Below, in pieces: positions 2,647 to 18,023 of a stretch of DNA of 20,000 nt. The position numbers were made by a program, and so were the translations under genes. The notes beneath the pieces were generated by a model, which was not told the origin of the DNA, did no database searches, and saw only the letters and a program-made list of their open reading frames with translations. Origin of the DNA: an uncultured virus (IMG/VR IMGVR_UViG_3300037313_000338) (taxonomy: Duplodnaviria > Heunggongvirae > Uroviricota > Caudoviricetes). The DNA is taken from the IMG/VR virus record IMGVR_UViG_3300037313_000338; one strand, 5' to 3'. Each line of letters starts with the position of its first letter. The stretch's first letter is position 1.

Positions 2647-3120
<474 letters not shown>

Positions 3121-3128
3121 TTATTAGA

Positions 3129-3326
3129 ATGGATGATCAAGAATTTCTCATTCAGTTCTTCCATTACGAACATCTACCAATTGAGAAACAAGGGGTGTCA
3201 AAGCCCTTTGGTGAGTTAGCAAAACTCATTGTACAAACACTGCCACGTAACCCGGAACGTACGACGGCTCTTCGAAAGCTGTTGGAAGCTAAGGACTGTG
3301 CGGTGAGAGCTTCATTCGCCAAGTAG
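3129..3326 (+). CDS. Small helical-hairpin phage protein, possibly an Acb2/Tad1-like nucleotide-signal sponge
   Basis: FFHYEHLP...SKPFGELA...PRNPERTTALRKLLEAKDCAVRA is a pattern I recognise in phage proteins. The second helix resembles the Tad1-type E-x3-A-x2-KL-x-EA helix. Function is inferred. Confidence 0.5.
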   Translation: MDDQEFLIQFFHYEHLPIEKQGVSKPFGELAKLIVQTLPRNPERTTALRKLLEAKDCAVRASFAK

Positions 3327-3331
3327 AAGTT

Positions 3332-3364
3332 AGGCCCTAGTATTTCGGTACTAGGGCCTTTCTT
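3332..3364 (+). terminator. Intrinsic terminator with a UUCG loop
   Basis: AGGCCCTAGTA (3332-3342), loop tTTCGg, TACTAGGGCCT (3349-3359), then TTCTT. Confidence 0.8.
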
Positions 3365-3389
3365 ATGAAGTGCTACAGGATACGTTAGT

Positions 3390-5738
3390 ATGCCTATTTC
3401 GCTAAAAAAGCCATGGGGCGATTACATCTGCCCGACCGACAATTTTTATATGCTGCGCCCGGCAGGTATGGGCGGTAGCCCTAAGCGATACAAGCATAGG
3501 CTACTGGTCGTGTACGACCGCCCGTTCCACAACGATACGGAAGTGGGTGAACTTCACAGTTATAAAGCGGGCACAACCATGCTCGCGAATACACCCGAAT
3601 GGCGCAAGCCTACTATGCCTTCCGAGACCATTGACCGGTTACTTCATGTGGCTGGTTACGAGAAGTGGGATAAGGTTGCTGTCGGGTGGCAATTCCACGA
3701 CCTAGAAGACTTGACGGATGATTTAGTAGAACGCGCCTTCCAAGCATTTGACAAACGTCTGACGTACTACATCAAAAAGTTGGAACCTACCGCGATCCTA
3801 TTCATGGGAGACGCGCCGTTAGTAAACTACGCCAAACGCAAGGGTAAACGCGTGCCTGTTGGGCGCGTGTTTAAGTACAAGGGCGTTGACGCGATCTGGA
3901 CGGTTCCAGCGGCTCCGCTTTGCGTACCTGATCCTGGTACGTCTTCGTTATTAGGCCAAGCGATGGATCATGCTGACGCAGTGCGCGTTGGCAAGAACCG
4001 CTACACGGCCCGTAAGCTGGAGCAACCTACCGAAATAGTATACTGCGATACGCTGGATAAGGTTGAAGAGGCTGTTGAAGCCTGTCTTGCGTCACCGCAA
4101 TTCGCGTACGATACGGAAGGCGCAAACCTCAATCGTATCATCAACACGTTATTATCTGTCCAGTTGGCTCCCACTACCGACAAGGCGTACTTCATTCCTT
4201 GCGCGCACGTAGACAGCCCATTCGGCGGCAAGACACTAGACCAAGTTTACGCCAAGCTGCGACGACTGTTTCATACGTACACGGGTACGGTTATTACCGC
4301 GCACGGCAAGTACGATTTGATTATGGCACGCGTGCAACTGAAGGTACCGCATATGCGGTTCAAGTTGTACGACGTTGCGGCGGCTGAATACGCCATCGAC
4401 GAGAACCGGAAATACTACAGCGCAATTATTAGCGCACAGAAGGTTTATCTAAGCGTCGATGGTGAACGCAAGGCTGAGAAAGACCGCGACAAGCACAACA
4501 AGAACAAGTTGTCTGCGTGGGGTCTACAGCGCATCGAAGAGGACTACGGGATAAGCCGAGGCGAAGACATTCTCGGTAAGGACCAACGTACTAACATGTC
4601 GGCAGTGCCGTTGGAACAAATCGTCCCATACGGTATCCTTGACGTTGTGAACCTGTTATTAATCAAGGAACAGCAAGAACGTCTAGCTAAACGACGAGGG
4701 TTCCCCAACTTCCAAGGCTATGTTGAACACCTGGGGTTAATGACTCACGTGTTCGCGAGCATGGAGGTGCGCGGGTTGCCTACAGACGTGCCTGCGCTGA
4801 TTGCGCTACGCAAAGCAGACGGGCCGGTGCGTAAGGCCATTCGCGAAGCCAAAGCGATATTAATGGAAAGCGATGCTGCGAAGCACGCAAACGCCATGTT
4901 ATTGCGGCAGATCGGAGCACCAGCGAAAAGCCTATGGGGCAATCAGACAGCCTGGGTGTTCAATCCAGACAAAGACGAGAGCCAACAAACATTATTCTTC
5001 GGCGTGCTACACCTGAAAGGGTTTGGTATCACGGCGACGGGTAAGAAATCAGTAGGCAAGCAGTTCCTCAAAAATAATGCTGCACACCCTATCGTCGCGG
5101 CGTATGCCGATTACGTAGAAGCTAAGAAGTTCAAGACCGGATTCGTCGACAGCTTTGCCGCTATTATTTCGACCAATCCTGACGCTCGCGCCACACAACG
5201 CATTAGGTCCAGTTACGGCTTCCTGACTGTGTTGACCGGGCGAACGTCGTCTACGGACCCGAACCTTCAGAACCTTCCGGCTCACGGTAAGCTAGCCAAG
5301 CTTATTAAGAAGATTACGAAGGCCGTGTTCGGTTACGGGTTAATCAAACAAGACTTCGGCCAGAACGAAATCCGCGGCTACGCTATTATCTCCAAAGATA
5401 GTGCGTACGCGGCCAAATTCTGGAATAGTATCTTGATGCATAAAGCCTACCGCGTTGCAACTGATCCGGCGAAGATCGATGAGCTTCACAAGGAATGGGA
5501 CACGAAGGGTGACACGCACGTTCAGGCGGTGTGGGACTTCTTCAAGCAACGAGTTAATAAGAAACACGCGTTGAGGCAGGCGGTTAAGGCCGTCATCTTC
5601 GGCGTGCTGTACGGTAAATCGGCTAGGTCGCTAGCTTTGGAACTAGCGTTAGTGGAAATCAAACAGCTTCGCGAGGAACTTAAAGCTCTGCGCGCGGCTA
5701 ATGATAACCAAGACAACGAACGAAAGCGGGCAGCTTGA
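3390..5738 (+). CDS. polA: Family A DNA polymerase, N-terminal part: degenerate UDG-like domain, 3'-5' exonuclease, thumb, motifs A and B
   Basis: ExoI YDTEG, ExoII HGKYD, ExoIII YGILD. TGRTSSTDPNLQNLP, motif A DFGQNEIR (5352-5375), DTH, motif B RQAVKAVIFGVLYG (5574-5615). Motif C is absent. Confidence 0.93.
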   Translation: MPISLKKPWGDYICPTDNFYMLRPAGMGGSPKRYKHRLLVVYDRPFHNDTEVGELHSYKAGTTMLANTPEWRKPTMPSETIDRLLHVAGYEKWDKVAVGWQFHDLEDLTDDLVERAFQAFDKRLTYYIKKLEPTAILFMGDAPLVNYAKRKGKRVPVGRVFKYKGVDAIWTVPAAPLCVPDPGTSSLLGQAMDHADAVRVGKNRYTARKLEQPTEIVYCDTLDKVEEAVEACLASPQFAYDTEGANLNRIINTLLSVQLAPTTDKAYFIPCAHVDSPFGGKTLDQVYAKLRRLFHTYTGTVITAHGKYDLIMARVQLKVPHMRFKLYDVAAAEYAIDENRKYYSAIISAQKVYLSVDGERKAEKDRDKHNKNKLSAWGLQRIEEDYGISRGEDILGKDQRTNMSAVPLEQIVPYGILDVVNLLLIKEQQERLAKRRGFPNFQGYVEHLGLMTHVFASMEVRGLPTDVPALIALRKADGPVRKAIREAKAILMESDAAKHANAMLLRQIGAPAKSLWGNQTAWVFNPDKDESQQTLFFGVLHLKGFGITATGKKSVGKQFLKNNAAHPIVAAYADYVEAKKFKTGFVDSFAAIISTNPDARATQRIRSSYGFLTVLTGRTSSTDPNLQNLPAHGKLAKLIKKITKAVFGYGLIKQDFGQNEIRGYAIISKDSAYAAKFWNSILMHKAYRVATDPAKIDELHKEWDTKGDTHVQAVWDFFKQRVNKKHALRQAVKAVIFGVLYGKSARSLALELALVEIKQLREELKALRAANDNQDNERKRAA

Positions 5739-5781
5739 GTCCATAAATCCAGCTGCATAATGTTTCGGGTCATGTCAAGTG

Positions 5782-5815
5782 CGCCCTCAGTCCGCGTGTT
5801 GGCGGACTGAGGGCG
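5782..5815. other. Perfect 14-bp GC-rich inverted repeat without a U-tract
   Basis: CGCCCTCAGTCCGC (5782-5795), 6-nt loop, GCGGACTGAGGGCG (5802-5815). Confidence 0.85.
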
Positions 5816-5827
5816 ATGTGCTATATT
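5799..5827 (+). promoter_or_regulatory. Candidate sigma70-type promoter for the inserted cassette and the polA C-terminal gene
   Basis: TTGGCG-N17-TATATT with TG just upstream of the -10 (TGcTATATT). It also contains CTATAT, the -10 typical of rhizobial RpoD promoters. Confidence 0.45.
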
Positions 5828-5849
5828 AATCTCACTCGGGGAATGTCAG

Positions 5850-6041
5850 ATGGTTGAAATCATTAAACGCGGTACGCTCAAATACGAAAAGGTCTATGAG
5901 GCGACCTGTAGACAATGCACGACGGAATTCACTTTCAAGCGGCATGAAGCCGCAGAACTCTACGACCCACGTGAGGGAACTGCGTTAGGTATTAATTGTC
6001 CGCTTGCTGGTTGCAATAACGAAGTATGGGTGAACGCGTAA
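5850..6041 (+). CDS. Small Zn-ribbon protein
   Basis: CRQC...CPLAGC, RBS GGGGA, TAATG overlap with the next gene. Confidence 0.75.
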   Translation: MVEIIKRGTLKYEKVYEATCRQCTTEFTFKRHEAAELYDPREGTALGINCPLAGCNNEVWVNA

Positions 6042-6229
6042 TGGCTCGGTTGCTGCCTGTAGTTGATGGACGTGTGACGTACAGAGGGCGACCGCAGCTA
6101 GGTTCTGGTAAAGTTATTAGTATCAACGACAAATGGGTGAACGTCTTGTGGGACGTTAGATTGTCTGACACGCACCGGTACGCTCGCATCAACCACATCG
6201 ACGAACTAGAAGGTCTAGCCGATGACTGA
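6041..6229 (+). CDS. Small hypothetical protein, possibly an SH3/KOW-like beta-barrel
   Basis: ATG at 6041 overlaps the upstream TAA. Pattern GRVTY...GSGKVISI...VNVLWD. Confidence 0.65.
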   Translation: MARLLPVVDGRVTYRGRPQLGSGKVISINDKWVNVLWDVRLSDTHRYARINHIDELEGLADD

Positions 6230-6728
6230 CGATAGTAACAAGTCTGAACAGCCTTTGATCTTCAGCAGTGACATTGGGTTTACGACAACGAAAACTGCCG
6301 CTAGCGAAATTCGCGAGGCTTTGACTGACGTACTAACTCGTTGTGTGAAAGACGGCGTAGCTCCAGCACATATCGCTTATGATATCGAGCAAGCGTTTCT
6401 CATGCATTTCGGCGTGAATCTTACTAAAGTTGTCGAAGCCCAACGTGGCTTTGAACAACCTCCGGTGATGGGCGCGTCTGATATACTGGAAGCTGCTATA
6501 GCTGGAATACGGTTGCGGCTCGGTAAGAGACTTGGTTCTCATAGTGATTCAATCGTCGGTCCCGGCGTTGCGCCTAACTGTGGCTTCTCCGTTACGTCGC
6601 TTGACGATCCAGATGACTGGACGCGTTACGAACTGACGGTGAAAGAAAACAAACCCACCGAAAAATATAAAGAGTCCATCCGCCGTAGCGTGAACGCCAT
6701 TATGGAGAAAGCTTCCAGCAATGAGTAG
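6222..6728 (+). CDS. Hypothetical protein (168 aa)
   Basis: Overlaps both neighbours by 8 nt, RBS AAGG, no recognisable motif. Confidence 0.7.
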   Translation: MTDDSNKSEQPLIFSSDIGFTTTKTAASEIREALTDVLTRCVKDGVAPAHIAYDIEQAFLMHFGVNLTKVVEAQRGFEQPPVMGASDILEAAIAGIRLRLGKRLGSHSDSIVGPGVAPNCGFSVTSLDDPDDWTRYELTVKENKPTEKYKESIRRSVNAIMEKASSNE

Positions 6729-7605
6729 ACGCGAGCGGGAGATTACTAATCGTATCGACCTACTTGAGCGCGACCCACAAGGCGCTAAGCTACAAGAGGC
6801 CGAAGATACTATTAACAAGTTCTTTGAGAAATACCCCGATGGCGCACGATGGATCGAGGCGACGCACAAAAGCGGCAGAGAAGAGTTCTTTGCACCCAAT
6901 CTTTTTGGAGGCCGCCGCCACCTGTATGGTTATATTAGCGCTAACACTGGCGTCCACTCGGCGATGGATCGAAGAGGGCCAAACTCTCTCATCCAAGGTC
7001 CGCTCTCTCAAGTCGGATACGTCGCAGTCTACAGCCTCGAACAGTGGCTCGACGATCTCTCCAACGAAACCAACCTACCATTAATAGAACACATGGGTGT
7101 GTTCAACATGGTGCACGACTCACAGGAAATGGAAGCCCCTATCCTGTTGATGCCGTTAGCAAGTTACATGTTGGAGCACGCCTGTACGACACGGGTGGTG
7201 GAATACTTTAATAAATATCAAGTCGCTCAGAACTATAAGTTGTCGGTCCACGAAAAGTCCGGCAAACAAGTTGGCATTCCGCTGAACGTGGAATTCGAAG
7301 TCGACCAAGAAATCGGCCTGAACCTGGGCGAAACTAATAAGTACGACGGCCACCGCCGTTCAATGCTCTCCAGCATGTTGCCGATGGCTCGTTCCAAGCG
7401 AGAACGTAGGCAGTTAACCGCTAACATCGAATTAGTGATGGGCTTGCGGGAGAAAGAAATTCGCCGTGACCTGAAGTCATACAAAAATAGCAACGACAAC
7501 AAAGAAGCGTTGATACCGTCTACTCGTTGTTTACTAACGGCAAAGCACGTCTTAGAAATGTACTTGCCTGAGGAAGTGAAACCGAAAAAGCGGCATCAGG
7601 TGTAA
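6721..7605 (+). CDS. polA: Family A DNA polymerase, C-terminal part (distal fingers and palm motif C)
   Basis: EAEDTINKFFEKYP, NLFGGRRHL, RRGPNSLIQG and motif C NMVHDS (7111-7122) continue the PolA fold where the upstream gene stops. Confidence 0.92.
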   Translation: MSRREREITNRIDLLERDPQGAKLQEAEDTINKFFEKYPDGARWIEATHKSGREEFFAPNLFGGRRHLYGYISANTGVHSAMDRRGPNSLIQGPLSQVGYVAVYSLEQWLDDLSNETNLPLIEHMGVFNMVHDSQEMEAPILLMPLASYMLEHACTTRVVEYFNKYQVAQNYKLSVHEKSGKQVGIPLNVEFEVDQEIGLNLGETNKYDGHRRSMLSSMLPMARSKRERRQLTANIELVMGLREKEIRRDLKSYKNSNDNKEALIPSTRCLLTAKHVLEMYLPEEVKPKKRHQV

Positions 7606-7624
7606 ACGCACCTGGATAAAATAG

Positions 7625-7846
7625 ATGGGGCAAAATATGATTCGCAATCCGTTGTCAGAATTCGAGTACCCGTTAATGCATTTCGGTAATCTCGTAGTGG
7701 CGCGCAGTGGTTTGCACGTATGTCAAGCTTTCAACGAATCAATAGCGAAACAAATCTGTTCTGATCTTAATAAAGAACAAGAACTTCGCGTAGCAAGTGT
7801 AAGAGTCGGAAAAGGCAATCCTGCCGCCGCGTACAGTTTTTTATGA
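7625..7846 (+). CDS. Hypothetical protein
   Basis: ORF fills the gap in the + strand gene train. Confidence 0.6.
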   Translation: MGQNMIRNPLSEFEYPLMHFGNLVVARSGLHVCQAFNESIAKQICSDLNKEQELRVASVRVGKGNPAAAYSFL

Positions 7847-8233: not shown

Positions 8234-8419
8234 ATGCTCACTTGGACTATAATTGTAATGGAGAATTCTCGGGGATTTCGTATGGCGACGTACACGAATG
8301 AGACTGAGGCTCGCGAGAAAGCTTCAGCAGCCGCAAAGGGAATGGATAGCCCTATGTTTGGTCATCGTACCGTCTACATTATTGATCCTTTTGGGATGCA
8401 TTCTCAGGTGTTTCCATGA
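8234..8419 (+). CDS. Hypothetical protein
   Basis: RBS AAGGA, ATGA overlap with the next gene. Confidence 0.65.
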   Translation: MLTWTIIVMENSRGFRMATYTNETEAREKASAAAKGMDSPMFGHRTVYIIDPFGMHSQVFP

Positions 8420-9033
8420 CCGTCCCATCAAAGACGTCTATTAAACTGCACGGCGGCATTTTCTTCGATTTCGAGCAACCCGAACGCAGTCCCTTTACAA
8501 TCGAAACTGTTGCTCATCATCTGTCGAAAGTAGACCGCTACGCTGGTATGCTGGACGTGATCTTTTCGGTAGGGCAACACTGCCTGTTAGTAGACGTAAT
8601 TGTCGCCCATCTTGTAAGTGCATTACACGAAACGGACCCATTGGAGTATTGGCAGCTTCGGTTTGAAGCATTGATGCATGATAACTCCGAGTTCGTTATG
8701 GGCGATATGGTGCATCCTCTTAAGATCATCATGCCAGAGTATCGCGCCAAAGAAGCGCAAATCGAAGACCTTTGCAGCAGGCGGTTTGGTTTCCGTCGCC
8801 CACATAATCCAGTTATTATGCAAGCTGACAAGATCGCGCGTTACGTCGAGACTTATAACTTCGATCCGCATTTTGATGGCGTGAACACCACAGTCCACCA
8901 AGGCGAAGTTATTCCTGACCTGTTCAGGGAGTATCACCTTTCGCCGATGAATTTCCCCGAAGTGAAGGATGAATTCTTGGCCCGATACAACCTCATCACC
9001 GGCAAGATCACTTCCTCTATGCTGGAAGCATGA
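8416..9033 (+). CDS. HD-domain phosphohydrolase, YfbR/YfdR-like 5'-deoxynucleotidase
   Basis: VAHHLS...RYAG...SVGQH...ALMHDNSEFVMGDMVHPLK...ADK gives the H...HD...D metal motif. Confidence 0.88.
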   Translation: MTVPSKTSIKLHGGIFFDFEQPERSPFTIETVAHHLSKVDRYAGMLDVIFSVGQHCLLVDVIVAHLVSALHETDPLEYWQLRFEALMHDNSEFVMGDMVHPLKIIMPEYRAKEAQIEDLCSRRFGFRRPHNPVIMQADKIARYVETYNFDPHFDGVNTTVHQGEVIPDLFREYHLSPMNFPEVKDEFLARYNLITGKITSSMLEA

Positions 9034-13853: not shown

Positions 13854-14501
13854 ATGTTCGCATCCAAGGCTCAAACAGAACTCGTTCTACAAGGTGGCCC
13901 GGTGCTCGGTGATTTCGTCACCAAGGAAGAGCTTATGCTACAGGAGGCTACCTTGCTGGAACTTAACGTTACTAGCTACAATCGAATTCTCCGATTTATG
14001 CAGACCTACGAACAAGATACGCCCACGCGTCCCGGTTGGCCTAGCGAAGAGGTTTTCCGGCTGCGTGTTCGTCTGGACCTCGAAGAATTCTTCGAGAAGC
14101 TTGTGCTAGGTTACTACAATGGCAACCCGGTCGAAATCATCGACGGTGCTTGTGACGTTGAGGTGGTCGGCACTGGCGCGACTATCGCGTTTGGAGTTAA
14201 TCACGAACTCTGCATCGCGGAAGTGGATCGCTCCAACCTCTCCAAGCTCGGAGAAGACGGCAAGCCGATTAAAGACGAATACGGCAAGGTACAAAAAGGG
14301 CCGAATTATACTAAGCCCAACATTCGCCAGTTCCTCCACGATTGGGCGGACACGCCTGCGCCGTACGATACTAAAAAGATCGTGGCTGAGGAATTTGCTA
14401 ACGTTCTGTTCGGTGAAAAGAACTACGGACGCAATGCGGAAATGCTGAACGTCAGCCGTATTAGTCGTGTTATCGACGTTCAGTTTGGTCTATCACGATA
14501 G
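13854..14501 (+). CDS. MazG-like all-alpha NTP pyrophosphohydrolase (DR2231/PRA-PH-like)
   Basis: LEEFFE...EIIDGACD metal motif and EVDRSNLSK...GKPIKDEYGKVQKGPNYTKPNI. Confidence 0.88.
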   Translation: MFASKAQTELVLQGGPVLGDFVTKEELMLQEATLLELNVTSYNRILRFMQTYEQDTPTRPGWPSEEVFRLRVRLDLEEFFEKLVLGYYNGNPVEIIDGACDVEVVGTGATIAFGVNHELCIAEVDRSNLSKLGEDGKPIKDEYGKVQKGPNYTKPNIRQFLHDWADTPAPYDTKKIVAEEFANVLFGEKNYGRNAEMLNVSRISRVIDVQFGLSR

Positions 14502-14520: not shown

Positions 14521-15072
14521 ATGGAAGTTGATACCACTACTGAGGCAGCACCTTTCGAGTGCCTCCCTCATGACGAATTCTGCCGACAGTTAATGGAAGT
14601 TGTGAAGCTCCCTGCTGTTAAGGGCACTGCGCATAAAGTTAAAACAAAGTGGACTGATCCTGAAGACATGATCAGTGAAGCTGTTATTAAGGCCATTGAA
14701 AACCGTGAAAAGTTTCGGGCTGGTACCAACCTATCCGCTTGGTTCTGTTTCATATTGCGTAACGCGGCGCTTACTAAAATCCGTAAGCACGGCAAGCGAG
14801 AATTCGAAATGGCGGAAGGTCAAGCCGAAAGCATCCCGCTGGCGGCATCCGCTCACCATACCTTAGAATTAAAAGAAGTTCTGGCGGCGCTGCATTACAT
14901 GTCGCGTGCTAACTACACGGCGTTCGACGCAGTTGTACTGCAAGAAATGACGTATGAAGAGGCTGCCATTCATATGAATATTCCGATTGGCTCAGTTAAA
15001 TCTCGCGTCTCACGTGGTCAAACCGAGTTATTCGAATACTTCGGACTGCAAAGAGGGGATCAAGTTGTCTAG
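14521..15072 (+). CDS. ECF sigma factor, EcfG (ECF15/SigT/RpoE2)-like
   Basis: Region 2 EDMISEAVIKA...FRAGTNLSAWFCFILRN...RKHGKRE, region 4 TYEEAA...IPIGSVKSRVSRG, RBS GGAGG. Confidence 0.88.
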   Translation: MEVDTTTEAAPFECLPHDEFCRQLMEVVKLPAVKGTAHKVKTKWTDPEDMISEAVIKAIENREKFRAGTNLSAWFCFILRNAALTKIRKHGKREFEMAEGQAESIPLAASAHHTLELKEVLAALHYMSRANYTAFDAVVLQEMTYEEAAIHMNIPIGSVKSRVSRGQTELFEYFGLQRGDQVV

Positions 15073-15076
15073 TGCT

Positions 15077-16003
15077 ATGCTGCGACCGGTCCTGCCGCTG
15101 ACTAACGAGGAACTTGCAATGCGTCATGGCTTGCGCCGTTTAGACCCTATCGATTTCAAGACCAGCCTTGAAGTTAATAAGCCCGGTCCCGCACCGGAAA
15201 TGCTCGATGTTGAAATCTGGCGTCTGTGCGTAAACGACGAGTATCAGCGCGATATCTCGGGAACCGGACGCAACCGCATTAAACTGATGGCCGAGAATTG
15301 GGATTGGGAAAAATACACCCCCATTTCCATCGTGTTAGCGGAAGCTGCGGCCATTGCTGAAGCGGGAACTACGCTCTACGAAGTGGTGGACGGTCAACAC
15401 GAAGCTATTGCAGCGGCTACTAACGGCAACATTGTGCGTCTCCCGGCAATCTTGAAGTCCGCTTCGACTCTCAAAGAAAAGGCGGCGTCGTTCATCGGCA
15501 TTAATAAGCGGGTAGCTATCCCGACTTCGCATAAGTTCAACACGGAACTGGCGGCTGGGGATGAGGTTGCTATTAGCGTCAATTGCGCCTTGTCGTTTTC
15601 CAAGTGCCGGTTATTGGATATGCCGCCGTCGAAGGCGCAATACGAGGTAGGCGATACGCTGGCGGTTGGTACGATGCAAATCATCGTGCGGGCGCAAGGT
15701 GGTGACGCACTAACCCGCATCCTACGTATCGCTAAAGCCGGGCGTGCTGCGCCTATCACGGCGCATATGCTTAAAGCCTTAGCCATTGTCATTAACTCTG
15801 ATGATGACGATTTGGACGACAAGATTGCTAACTACCTTGTCGCGTACGGGGCTAAGCGTATCGAACTGGAATGCAAGGCCCATTGCCCGCCTGGGGAACA
15901 AGTGTCCTCTTATATGGCAGAGCACTTCTTTACTAAGTTGAACATTCGTAAACCGGCGGTGCGTGGCAGCAAGGCGCGTAGAGCCTCAAGGCTTTTGGCA
16001 TGA
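15077..16003 (+). CDS. ParB/Srx-like N-terminal domain protein (DUF6551-like); start ATG 15077 or 15119
   Basis: VNDEYQR...IKLMAENWDW...YEVVDGQH...EKAASFIGIN. ATG 15119 has a GAGG RBS. Confidence 0.75.
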   Translation: MLRPVLPLTNEELAMRHGLRRLDPIDFKTSLEVNKPGPAPEMLDVEIWRLCVNDEYQRDISGTGRNRIKLMAENWDWEKYTPISIVLAEAAAIAEAGTTLYEVVDGQHEAIAAATNGNIVRLPAILKSASTLKEKAASFIGINKRVAIPTSHKFNTELAAGDEVAISVNCALSFSKCRLLDMPPSKAQYEVGDTLAVGTMQIIVRAQGGDALTRILRIAKAGRAAPITAHMLKALAIVINSDDDDLDDKIANYLVAYGAKRIELECKAHCPPGEQVSSYMAEHFFTKLNIRKPAVRGSKARRASRLLA

Positions 16004-16268: not shown

Positions 16269-16305
16269 AAAACCCCGTAGCGCTAGCGCTACGGGGTTTT
16301 TCTTT
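16269..16305 (+). terminator. Intrinsic terminator (perfect 32-bp palindrome, possibly bidirectional)
   Basis: AAAACCCCGTAGCGCT/AGCGCTACGGGGTTTT (16269-16300), followed by TCTTT. Confidence 0.88.
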
Positions 16306-16355: not shown

Positions 16356-18023
16356 ATGGCTCAACGCGTACGCACGTTGATAAAAGGCAAGCTGTACTTG
16401 AGGCAGCGCGATTTGGAAAAGGTAGTCGCCAATACGGACGATATCATCCGCGCGTATCGGGTACGAGCTTTTAATGAAATGAGTTGCCGTAGTTGTCCGC
16501 ATTTGGATGAGCGATTCTCACGTGAGCATTGCGGACCTTGCGAACACTACAATGGCAAGATTGAACTAGCGGAACGCTTGAGGATCGACGGTAATAAGTA
16601 CATTTCGCTTCCGCTAGGCGCACAGCGCAGCATCGAACGTAAGCTGGATATTAAGCTTAAGGTACCAGAAGGATTCGACCTACGTAAGTATCCGGCGATG
16701 GCTAAGCGCTACAAGCTTACTATCGATCTATATGATGGCACTCCCGCACCCGACGGTACTACCCGCATCAACCAAGAAAAAGCGGTTGAGGATTGGCTAG
16801 CTGGCGGCGGCATTGGAGTTATTAGAGCGGGAGCCCGTTCAGGTAAGACGGTGTTGGCCGTAGCTATATCCGTGAAGCTTCGCCTTAAGACCTTAGTAGT
16901 GACCGATAGCACGGATTTGCTAGATCAGTTTTGGGACACCTATTGCGGTGATGGAGTTTCGCGCATTTGCGCTACCAACATGCCCGCCGAGCGTGTTATC
17001 AAGATTAATAAAATGGAGGATTTCCTAAAGCCTCACGACGTAGCCCTGATCAACTATCAGAAGCTCATTCGTGAAACGGCAGACGCACGGATCGAAGCGT
17101 TCATTCGTGGAAAATACGGCCTGTTAGTAGGCGACGAAGTACACATGGCGGCGGCGCAAGCCTACGCCTCGTTCCTCCTGAAGTTAGACGTACCTTTCCG
17201 GTTAGGCCTATCGGCTACGCCGAAGCGCAAAGACGGTCGCTACCATGTAGCCGAAGCTGTGTACGGCCCGGTTATTGTTAGCCTCAATAAGGTCGGTCTC
17301 AAACCACTGGTCAAGATTCACCGCACTGGACGATTTGCCGGACGTTCTCAACGGGCGTGGCACATGATTAGTGCGATGATCGTTGAAGACAAAGTGCGCA
17401 ACAAGCAGATAGTAGACCAAGCGTTTGCGGCTATCGACCGAGGACACAAAGCAGCACTCATTGCGTTAGACCAGACGGAGCACATCGACAACATCACAGA
17501 AATGCTGAACGACCGTGCGTACGAAGAGCATCGTAAGAACCGAAACCTGCCTGAAATAACTGCGATGAAAATCGACGGACGTACAGTTGGTAAGGCGCGC
17601 AAAGCCAAGTTCGACGAATTTGATGCTGAAGGCGCGCCGTATAAATTCCTTGTGGCACAACGCAAAATCGTCAAACAGGGTATCGACCTGAAGCGACCGT
17701 CCTGCGTTATTATGCCTATTCCCATGTCCGCTAAGCCCGGCGAAGGCGCACCGTTATTCGAGCAATTGAGTTGGCGCGGTTCTACGCCGTACCACGGTAA
17801 GTGCCAACCGGAAGCAATCGTGTTTGCGGATGATTCCGGTGTGCTTGAGGGAATTATTAACGGCCTGTTGCGTTGGGAAGTCATGAAGAATGACGTGGCA
17901 CAAGTTGGTGATAAGCGTGGCATCTATCACGTTGACGATAGCTGCTACAAGTTCATGGAAACCTCAGGCAAATCAACCAACGTCTCCTACGGTAAAGTCG
18001 GAGGCGTAGTTATTAGGAGATAA
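16356..18023 (+). CDS. Superfamily 2 DNA helicase (UvsW/XPB-like) with an N-terminal C4 Zn finger
   Basis: Q motif NQ, motif I AGARSGKT, motif II DEVH, motif III SAT, motif V QGIDL, and CxxC-x11-CxxC at residues 44-62. Confidence 0.9.
   Translation: MAQRVRTLIKGKLYLRQRDLEKVVANTDDIIRAYRVRAFNEMSCRSCPHLDERFSREHCGPCEHYNGKIELAERLRIDGNKYISLPLGAQRSIERKLDIKLKVPEGFDLRKYPAMAKRYKLTIDLYDGTPAPDGTTRINQEKAVEDWLAGGGIGVIRAGARSGKTVLAVAISVKLRLKTLVVTDSTDLLDQFWDTYCGDGVSRICATNMPAERVIKINKMEDFLKPHDVALINYQKLIRETADARIEAFIRGKYGLLVGDEVHMAAAQAYASFLLKLDVPFRLGLSATPKRKDGRYHVAEAVYGPVIVSLNKVGLKPLVKIHRTGRFAGRSQRAWHMISAMIVEDKVRNKQIVDQAFAAIDRGHKAALIALDQTEHIDNITEMLNDRAYEEHRKNRNLPEITAMKIDGRTVGKARKAKFDEFDAEGAPYKFLVAQRKIVKQGIDLKRPSCVIMPIPMSAKPGEGAPLFEQLSWRGSTPYHGKCQPEAIVFADDSGVLEGIINGLLRWEVMKNDVAQVGDKRGIYHVDDSCYKFMETSGKSTNVSYGKVGGVVIRR

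Follow-up and report, generated by a model that had tools for sequence, protein, structure and literature searches.

A phage family A DNA polymerase encoded in two genes, with motifs A and B on one and motif C on the other

The DNA considered here is a 20,000-nucleotide (nt) stretch from an uncultured member of the Caudoviricetes (IMG/VR record IMGVR_UViG_3300037313_000338), referred to below as the window. It encodes a family A DNA polymerase (PolA) in two open reading frames (ORFs): PolA-N, which carries the 3'-5' exonuclease together with polymerase motifs A and B; and PolA-C, which carries motif C. (The names of these motifs, and their catalytic roles in family A polymerases, are textbook knowledge.) An earlier note on this DNA had described a naturally split polymerase free of intron and intein, and had offered two explanations: a heterodimer with a composite active site, or halves rejoined at the RNA or translation level. 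The analysis reported here makes the first of these probable. On the evidence of sequence comparison and modelling, this would be a two-subunit PolA, joined non-covalently, in which both chains contribute to one active site.

The divided gene and the cassette within it

The two ORFs and their recognizable elements lie as follows.

3390..5738, + strand: PolA-N ORF, 782 amino acids (aa); N-terminal region, 3'-5' exonuclease, thumb, palm motif A, fingers motif B, and a break-specific C-terminal tail
4110..4118, + strand: Exo I motif D241-T242-E243; D241 and E243 are invariant in 14 sequences
5352..5375, + strand: motif A, with catalytic D655, E660, and R662; invariant columns
5574..5615, + strand: motif B (O-helix), with R729, K733, F737, G738, and Y741; invariant columns
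5622..5735, + strand: N-half tail, residues 745-782; residues 745-771 are predicted to be helical and to contact the C-half head
6721..7605, + strand: PolA-C ORF, 294 aa; starts with a break-specific head, continues through the other fingers helices to palm motif C, and ends in a C-terminal extension common to contiguous relatives
6721..6792, + strand: C-half head, residues 1-24, a predicted helix pairing with the N tail
7114..7122, + strand: motif C, H132-D133-S134, which contains the other catalytic Asp; H132 and D133 form invariant columns

The ORF list bears out the coordinates of the earlier note: the two halves are separated by 982 nt (5739-6720) and lie in different frames (3390 mod 3 = 0; 6721 mod 3 = 1). 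Together they amount to 1076 aa, against 1003-1056 aa for contiguous relatives.

Pfam locates DNA_pol_A_exo1 (PF01612) at PolA-N residues 218-424 (E-value 2.9e-6; 27.7 bits against a cut-off of 23.6), and the polymerase profile DNA_pol_A (PF00476) at residues 524-753, which correspond to profile positions 30-231 of 381 (E 3.2e-26; 92.6 bits, cut-off 34.3). The latter profile resumes in PolA-C, where residues 22-137 correspond to positions 232-339 of 381 (E 6.5e-10; 38.9 bits, cut-off 34.3). The two matches meet exactly at 231|232, and the fold is divided just after motif B, as had been claimed. PHROGs matches are phrog_17 for PolA-N (E 3.8e-44) and phrog_5995 for PolA-C (E 4e-13).

Comparison with solved structures places the break more closely. 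Profiles of both halves match Taq, Klenow, and Bst chains, the PolA-N profile reaching E-values of about 1e-65 with Taq and Klenow. PolA-C residues 20-115 align to Taq large-fragment chains, with homology beginning at chain residue 389-390, in sequence that comes directly after the helix following the O-helix. This starting point puts the break at the fingertips: by alignment, it is in the fingertip loop, directly after the helix that follows motif B.

Both halves keep their catalytic residues in invariant alignment columns, again as the earlier note had stated. In addition to the residues listed above, Y414 and D418 of the Exo III YxxxD motif form invariant columns in the PolA-N alignment. 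PolA-C residue S134 is invariant in one alignment (10 rows) and at least 90% conserved in a second; "HDS" is the usual motif C in this PolA group (VHDS in SPO1). Judged by profile match, by motifs A, B, and C, and by the exonuclease motifs, the locus is that of a family A DNA polymerase.

The gap between the halves consists of a 111-nt spacer, then three tightly packed ORFs of 63, 67, and 168 aa on the + strand; these ORFs, and a hairpin in the spacer, go beyond what the earlier note described.

5782..5815, + strand: perfect hairpin of 14 bp around a 6-nt loop, lacking a U tract, 44 nt after the PolA-N stop
5799..5827, + strand: weak sigma-70-like promoter match (TTGGCG, 17 nt, TATATT, TG before the -10; 9 of 12 positions), overlapping the 3' arm of the hairpin
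5850..6041, + strand: gap ORF 1, 63 aa, a Cys-pair (zinc-ribbon-like) phage protein (phrog_2834, E 2.8e-8)
6026..6229, + strand: gap ORF 2, 67 aa, with a small SH3/Tudor-like fold (a lead only)
6222..6728, + strand: gap ORF 3, a 168-aa orphan

Successive frames overlap: ORF 1 and ORF 2 by 16 nt, ORF 2 and ORF 3 by 8 nt, and ORF 3 and the PolA-C start by 8 nt.

The three gap ORFs have different affinities. The homologue of gap ORF 1 in phage BcepSauron (226338-226517; locus L012) is 50-52% identical and lies about 97 kb from the BcepSauron polymerase gene; weaker homologues occur in small Psychrobacter, Rhizobium, and Pseudomonas phages. From this distribution, gap ORF 1 looks like a mobile small phage gene. 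For gap ORF 2, tblastn yielded no phage match; its Atlas model has a pLDDT of 0.71, and the nearest clusters are small phage proteins without names. Gap ORF 3 has no Pfam or PHROG match, and a word-indexed search retrieves only itself. An exhaustive search of 1.84 billion representatives produced one relative, P0132 (37% identity, E 7.7e-15), which sits on a 7,709-nt JGI contig without link to the split polymerases described below. Gap ORF 3 is absent from all four related records searched, and its Atlas fold is of low confidence, with no usable match. No gap ORF matches an HNH, GIY-YIG, LAGLIDADG, reverse-transcriptase, or maturase entry in Pfam or PHROGs, and G+C content is the same in the insert (0.49-0.52) as on either side of it. 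By these sequence criteria, the gap looks like ordinary phage cargo rather than a recognizable mobile element.

The spacer raises a question of expression. The region 5736-5852 folds with a free energy of -40.1 kcal/mol (z -2.1), and the hairpin within it might serve in RNA processing or stability, or act as an attenuator. Hairpin and promoter-like site both stand between the N half and a cassette that ends with the C half. This arrangement would suit a temporal switch, in which PolA-N would at first work by itself, as an exonuclease or a DNA-binding protein, and the polymerase would form once PolA-C is made from the internal promoter-like site. The overlap of the C half with its upstream ORF, which suggests coupled translation, and the sigma factor encoded elsewhere in the window (14521-15072) would also fit such control. 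However, the promoter match is weak, and sigma-70-like sites in the window (16 found) show no excess over the 18.0 expected from shuffled sequence, so that this site is only a lead; the hairpin, moreover, has no U tract. A switch of this kind is unlikely, and it would refine the heterodimer model rather than replace it.

Relatives and origin of the split

The split is not peculiar to the window. The N half has five further representatives, all metagenomic, of 778-783 aa and with 75-84% identity over residues 400-782; free-standing C halves number eight besides that of the window, at 273-298 aa and 63-74% identity. In four cases an N half and a C half come from contigs with equal nt counts (205604, 31219, 44989, and 26183). 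All nine free-standing C halves, that of the window included, open with Met and a common basic motif.

Metagenomic origin is the one circumstance that would favour an assembly artefact, whether a chimeric join or an insertion error, and misassembly was an outcome that the earlier note had set against its own proposal. Yet the same architecture recurs in independent contigs from NCBI, ENA, Logan, and JGI. The Logan assembly of run X1 contains one 13,377-nt contig that spans 3300-7700 with 0 differences (word depth 18.7). Run X1, a soil metagenome, is probably the source sample itself; it therefore represents a second assembler and not an independent sample. It is the one DNA run listed as containing this stretch, and no RNA run is listed as containing it. 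The equal G+C content of insert and flanks likewise speaks against an artefact, which is scarcely credible.

The next relatives are contiguous: P0018 (1003 aa, 56% identical) and P0019 (1032 aa, 52%), the latter encoded by a complete IMG/VR genome, G001 (205,908 bp, with terminal repeats). Contiguous genes are also present in all five cultured phages inspected (BcepSauron, Yoloswag, GR7B, Motura, and Lb338-1) and at all three IMG/VR loci inspected (L003, L004, and L005). (Searches of viral, metagenome, and genome collections for relative loci produced the distant, contiguous L003-L005, along with the short, distant L006-L009 at 28-36% identity.) Alignment to homologues, a check that the earlier note had proposed, thereby separates a split clade from its contiguous relatives.

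A quick maximum-likelihood tree was computed from 20 rows over the region matching N-half residues 1-744, leaving out the fragments P0017 and P0020 and bacterial Pol I matches, with SH-aLRT support. The six split N halves form one clade (support 100), whose sister group is P0018 plus P0019; support for the two together is likewise 100. A single split clade among contiguous relatives indicates that the split arose once, through one fission event, and that it has been retained through substantial divergence.

Retention bears also on whether the halves function at all. They might instead be a decaying relic, non-functional or in the course of being lost, with replication carried out by another phage polymerase or by that of the host. 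Unrelated genes inside a catalytic domain do look disruptive, and the search for another polymerase covered the window and the relative G001. Nevertheless, the ORFs are intact; five relatives keep the N half and eight keep the C half, at 63-84% identity, with catalytic columns invariant and tails conserved. The other 26 window ORFs scanned have no polymerase family match. In G001, the nearest complete relative, the PolA is the sole family A or B polymerase except for a 78-aa fragment, and there is no PolB; the enzyme is therefore probably essential. Decay is thus very unlikely.

The 78-aa fragment of G001 (G001:C1:140650-140781; L016) is a stray piece of polymerase: an open frame that corresponds to positions 122-166 of the DNA_pol_A profile (35.5 bits) and lies some 20 kb away from the main PolA.

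Other members of the lineage show further interruptions. Two relatives of the N half, P0017 (86% identity) and P0020 (63%), terminate at a TGR...P motif, around N-half residue 624 (compare window positions 5250-5270). Past this motif, P0017 continues for 20 unrelated residues and then stops; P0010 starts with Met-NLQNIP. These ends and this start coincide with the intron site of SPO1 gene 31, near the break in the polymerase of phage MEP401, and the window is uninterrupted there. Judged from these termini, the second interruption site is possibly an intron in some members of the lineage, and the phage encoding P0017 may have a three-piece polymerase. Taken with the split in the window, the termini indicate that the lineage is interrupted at two or more sites, which would make it a good system in which to study how essential genes survive insertions.

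The position of the window's split is itself occupied elsewhere. Contiguous BcepSauron PolA (L001, coding sequence 3662-6832) and P0025 contain an extra helical hairpin, about 50 residues long, at Pfam positions 231|236. This hairpin was considered, and rejected, as the ancestor of the break-specific tails: the tree places BcepSauron and P0025 far from the split clade, and their sister Motura has no hairpin. It is treated here as an independent insertion at a permissive site. Hairpin insertions at the split position suggest that the fingertip loop is a permissive, recurrent site of insertion.

Tails at the break, a two-subunit model, and the neighbouring genes

In contiguous relatives, the motif B helix leads directly to the conserved helix that comes next; in the split clade, N halves end with about 30 additional residues and C halves begin with about 21. 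The nearest contiguous relatives have no counterpart of the N tail from about residue 753 (P0018, P0019, and P0010 compared), or of C-head residues 1 to about 21. These additions are as well conserved as the catalytic core. Mean pairwise identity is 82.7% for N-tail residues 745-771 against 76.0% for the whole N half, and 74.7% for C-head residues 1-24 against 72.1% for the whole C half. Tail length differences are few, frame and stop position are kept, and all six N halves share the same end point. Conservation and frame-keeping together imply that the tails are under protein-level constraint. They read as translated, functional peptide, hard to fit with intron sequence.

Co-folding of the two chains, another check proposed by the earlier note, gave a consistent picture. 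N-half residues 430-782 and the C half, each with its alignment, were modelled together in three runs with three controls. The interface score ipSAE was 0.80 in all three runs, and the best of the three controls scored 0.00; among solved complexes, 116 of 157 attain the mark applied to this score, as do 2 of 215 mismatched pairs. Contact agreement across runs was at least 96%, and partner pLDDT at least 80. Besides the expected palm and fingers contacts, the predicted interface joins N-half residues 745-771 to C-half residues 2-24. Contacts recur with a spacing of three to four residues (heptad-like), which suggests two paired helices.

Screens for RNA or protein splicing were negative. An Rfam search of 5300-7100 at E-values up to 10 found no intron family, its sole row being a chance microRNA match (E 8.1). 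As a positive control, the real SPO1 intron scored 25.6 bits (E 5.9e-4) against a gathering score of 50. Neither PolA half, nor any of the three gap ORFs, has an intein or Hint match in Pfam. The tails lack a split-intein junction nucleophile and are predicted to be helical; at about 30 and 21 residues they are also too short for a split-intein N-fragment. Stop-codon read-through or frameshifting was considered and rejected, the frame after the TGA (5736-5738) stopping again after 23 sense codons. To our knowledge, a gap of 982 nt far exceeds any known bypassing.

These results bear directly on whether the gap could be an atypical self-splicing intron of about 1.1 kb, or a similar RNA-level element, that contains three ORFs. 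Splicing would then yield a contiguous product of about 1020 aa, and the tails would be read-through into the intron. Introns are known to target this PolA group: gene 31 of SPO1 contains a group I intron with a homing endonuclease gene. The termini of P0017, P0020, and P0010 fall at that very site, and the 20 unrelated residues of P0017 before its stop would fit an intron there; removal of the tails leaves a junction equal in length to contiguous relatives; and Rfam is weak even on the true SPO1 intron. The tails argue the other way. Sequence that is as conserved as the catalytic core, keeps its frame, ends at the same point in six of six N halves, and opens nine of nine C halves with Met and a shared basic motif is hard to square with read-through into an intron, and the heptad-like tails pair in the predicted complex. 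There is no group I or group II signal in the region searched, the gap ORFs have no likeness to homing endonucleases, and their overlaps suggest a translated operon. We regard an intron as decidedly unlikely. Of the two explanations in the earlier note, rejoining at the RNA or translation level has found no support in Rfam, Pfam, or tail conservation, and the statement that intein and intron are absent agrees with both database screens.

The heterodimer with a composite active site, in contrast, emerges as the best-supported explanation: the split is conserved, catalytic residues are invariant, tails are conserved, and co-fold controls were passed. The model is as follows. The replicative family A polymerase of a soil phage, probably a large one, would be encoded as two subunits. 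PolA-N would provide the proofreading exonuclease, the thumb, the motif A Asp, and the O-helix (motif B); PolA-C would provide the remaining fingers helices, the motif C Asp, and the C-terminal extension. Translated apart, the halves would assemble non-covalently into a normal PolA fold, so that the two catalytic carboxylates come from different chains. The N tail (about 30 residues) and the C head (about 21), present only in the split clade, would pair as antiparallel helices and take the place of the covalent link that was lost. The gap genes would be ordinary phage cargo and not a homing element, with PolA-C probably translationally coupled to them.

Several points weigh against this two-subunit model. 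The sequences themselves show the gene structure, the domain content, the single origin, and the conservation of split and tails; that the halves form an active complex, are expressed together, and are held by their tails is deduced from comparison and modelling. Passing the co-fold test may owe something to the resemblance of the halves to PolA structures solved as single chains: pieces of one known fold are expected to pass, and the result speaks for compatibility and tail pairing rather than for binding. The low score of the SPO1 intron reveals the limited sensitivity of the Rfam screen, whose negative result at 5300-7100 is thus moderate evidence. The tree is a quick search whose support values are SH-aLRT. 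Selection on the halves was judged from protein sequences. Finally, the polymerase search in the phage itself was confined to 20 kb, and a second polymerase may lie elsewhere in its genome.

The remainder of the window is a phage replication module with all genes on one strand. Its assigned elements are the following.

3-947: SSB-like protein
998-2536: UvsX/RecA-like recombinase
2647-3120: acidic protein, 157 aa, mostly Asp/Glu runs with a Lys/Ala-rich end, between recombinase and polymerase
3332..3359 (also given as 3327-3364), + strand: intrinsic-terminator-like hairpin, 12 pairs plus a T-rich tail, directly 5' of the PolA-N gene
8416-9033: YfbR-like deoxynucleoside monophosphate phosphatase (5'-deoxynucleotidase; phrog_318, E 3e-39)
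13854-14501: MazG-like nucleotide pyrophosphohydrolase (phrog_671, E 2.4e-29)
14521-15072: sigma factor
14987-16003: 338-aa ORF after the sigma-factor ORF, with a weak ParB-like match (E 8.3e-5)
16356-18023: SF2 helicase
19155 onwards: DnaB-like helicase

The window has three long spaced hairpins. Those at 3327-3364 and 16269-16300 look like terminators, and the former probably ends the preceding transcription unit; the third, at 5782-5815, has no U tract. At the position of the acidic protein, L003 has an ORF of similar size (182 aa), and the antisense of 2647-3120 is a spurious poly-Ser ORF. The 338-aa ORF, with a TTG start at 14987, overlaps the sigma-factor ORF by about 85 nt; its true start probably lies further downstream.

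Two of these neighbours invite speculation about what the break might do. Conceivably, the fingertip break and its conserved coiled-coil "zipper" are an adaptive innovation rather than tolerated damage, although we consider this doubtful. Uncoupling the O-helix from the motif C strand of the palm, and from the fingers helices after it, may alter closing of the fingers, and hence nucleotide selectivity. Pairs of YfbR-like and MazG-like enzymes can accompany non-canonical DNA bases in phages. Altered selectivity could therefore fit a non-canonical base, hinted at solely by these two neighbouring enzymes; no base-modification enzyme was identified among the window genes. Another possibility is that a different replisome protein docks on the projecting pair of helices; in that event the gap would be a protected slot for cargo genes co-expressed with the polymerase. 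On such a reading, this would be the first family A polymerase with its two catalytic Asp residues on different polypeptides.

For annotation, the two-subunit model implies that products of 294 and 782 aa be named as subunits of one enzyme and not as "partial" polymerases.

Comparison with known split enzymes

Both precedents named by the earlier note, the split ribonucleotide reductase of phage Aeh1 and the split T4 topoisomerase, are real (PMC3045599, PMC2988022). What follows describes these and other published systems as far as the excerpts of the cited papers go.

The closest parallels among replicative polymerases are in family B. In the jumbo phage PhiKZ, DNAP-N (gp82) and DNAP-C (gp50) assemble stably at 1:1 and the complex extends primers, as established by cryo-electron microscopy and assay (PMC13648687, a bioRxiv preprint). 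As in the window, two genes encode a phage replicative polymerase, with the motif A Asp and the motif C Asp on different chains, and the break falls within a lineage-specific helical insertion to which one chain contributes its C-terminus and the other its N-terminus (PMC13648687). The PhiKZ enzyme differs in family, in the position of its break (the palm), and in the size of its insertion, hundreds of residues rather than about 30 plus 21; moreover, its complex is experimentally proven, whereas that of the window is predicted.

In the T4-related Aeromonas phages 25 and 44RR, gp43 is split as 43A and 43B, and the phage 25 products co-purify and polymerize (PMC2988022, citing Petrov et al. 2010). 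Here too a phage replicative polymerase occupies two cistrons, separated by an untranslated spacer in one phage and with a seg endonuclease gene in the other. These enzymes are again of family B, with a homing endonuclease involved in one case. A mobile endonuclease at the break is not universal, none being described for 44RR or PhiKZ (PMC2988022, PMC13648687).

The Aeh1 ribonucleotide reductase NrdA-a/NrdA-b, split by mobE, is a different enzyme, itself essential to the phage, and its tails are essential for activity (PMC3045599). Its active site is likewise fragmented by inserted DNA, with unique C- and N-terminal tails at the break that arose with the insertion, and neither RNA nor protein splicing is involved. 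In Aeh1 the insert is a recognizable mobile endonuclease, of which the window gap has none, and the tails serve higher-order assembly rather than heterodimer formation (PMC3045599). By analogy, the Aeh1 NrdA tails would be the best functional counterpart of the tails described here.

Family A polymerases in two genes have been reported before. In S-SBP1-like members of the T7-like cyanophages, fission between the exonuclease and polymerase domains has been called the first split in PolAs, and AlphaFold models of S-SBP1 superpose on a contiguous relative (PMC10201439). LUZ24-like phages are annotated with "DNA polymerase part I" and "part II", separated by about ten small ORFs (PMC3890496). In both groups the break is at the exonuclease/polymerase boundary, leaving the active site on one chain, whereas the window break lies between motifs B and C.

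The OM43 phages MEP401 and MEP402 (Zobellviridae; L017), which are cultured and viable, offer a further case: ORF13 and ORF15 together make up PolA, the polymerase domain being divided by a small ORF with no endonuclease, and the authors left the mechanism open (PMC10580990). In MEP401, however, the break is at Pfam positions 132|154, just after TGR...NLQN, so that motifs A, B, and C are all on the 236-aa piece. These phages belong to another PolA lineage, and conserved helical tails are not noted in the excerpts of that paper.

SPO1 PolA, too, falls within this broad group (about 1050 aa, VHDS in motif C), and its gene 31 (L019) is also interrupted inside the polymerase domain. In that case the interruption has an Rfam Intron_gpI match, an HNH-type endonuclease ORF, and an annotated joined coding sequence: a true intron, located at TGR|NLQN and not after motif B. 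Splicing of the gene 31 mRNA yields a single protein.

An engineered enzyme provides a last parallel. The fingers of the archaeal family B polymerase Pfu were split by termination and reinitiation, giving an active two-piece polymerase with altered nucleotide selectivity (PMC3061061). That break, like the one in the window, is near the fingertip, although it is artificial and in an archaeal enzyme of family B. Should the present model hold, two short helices at the fingertip loop would be a compact natural design that could guide the engineering of split polymerases: conditional assembly, sensors, and altered nucleotide selectivity.

No PolA split between motifs B and C was found in the literature searched (open-access papers and bioRxiv). 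A composite active site across chains is already demonstrated in family B, and the published PolA splits sit elsewhere. The PolA-N/PolA-C pair, if it assembles as modelled, would extend to family A what PhiKZ and the T4-like phages have proved for family B: that two chains can share one replicative active site.

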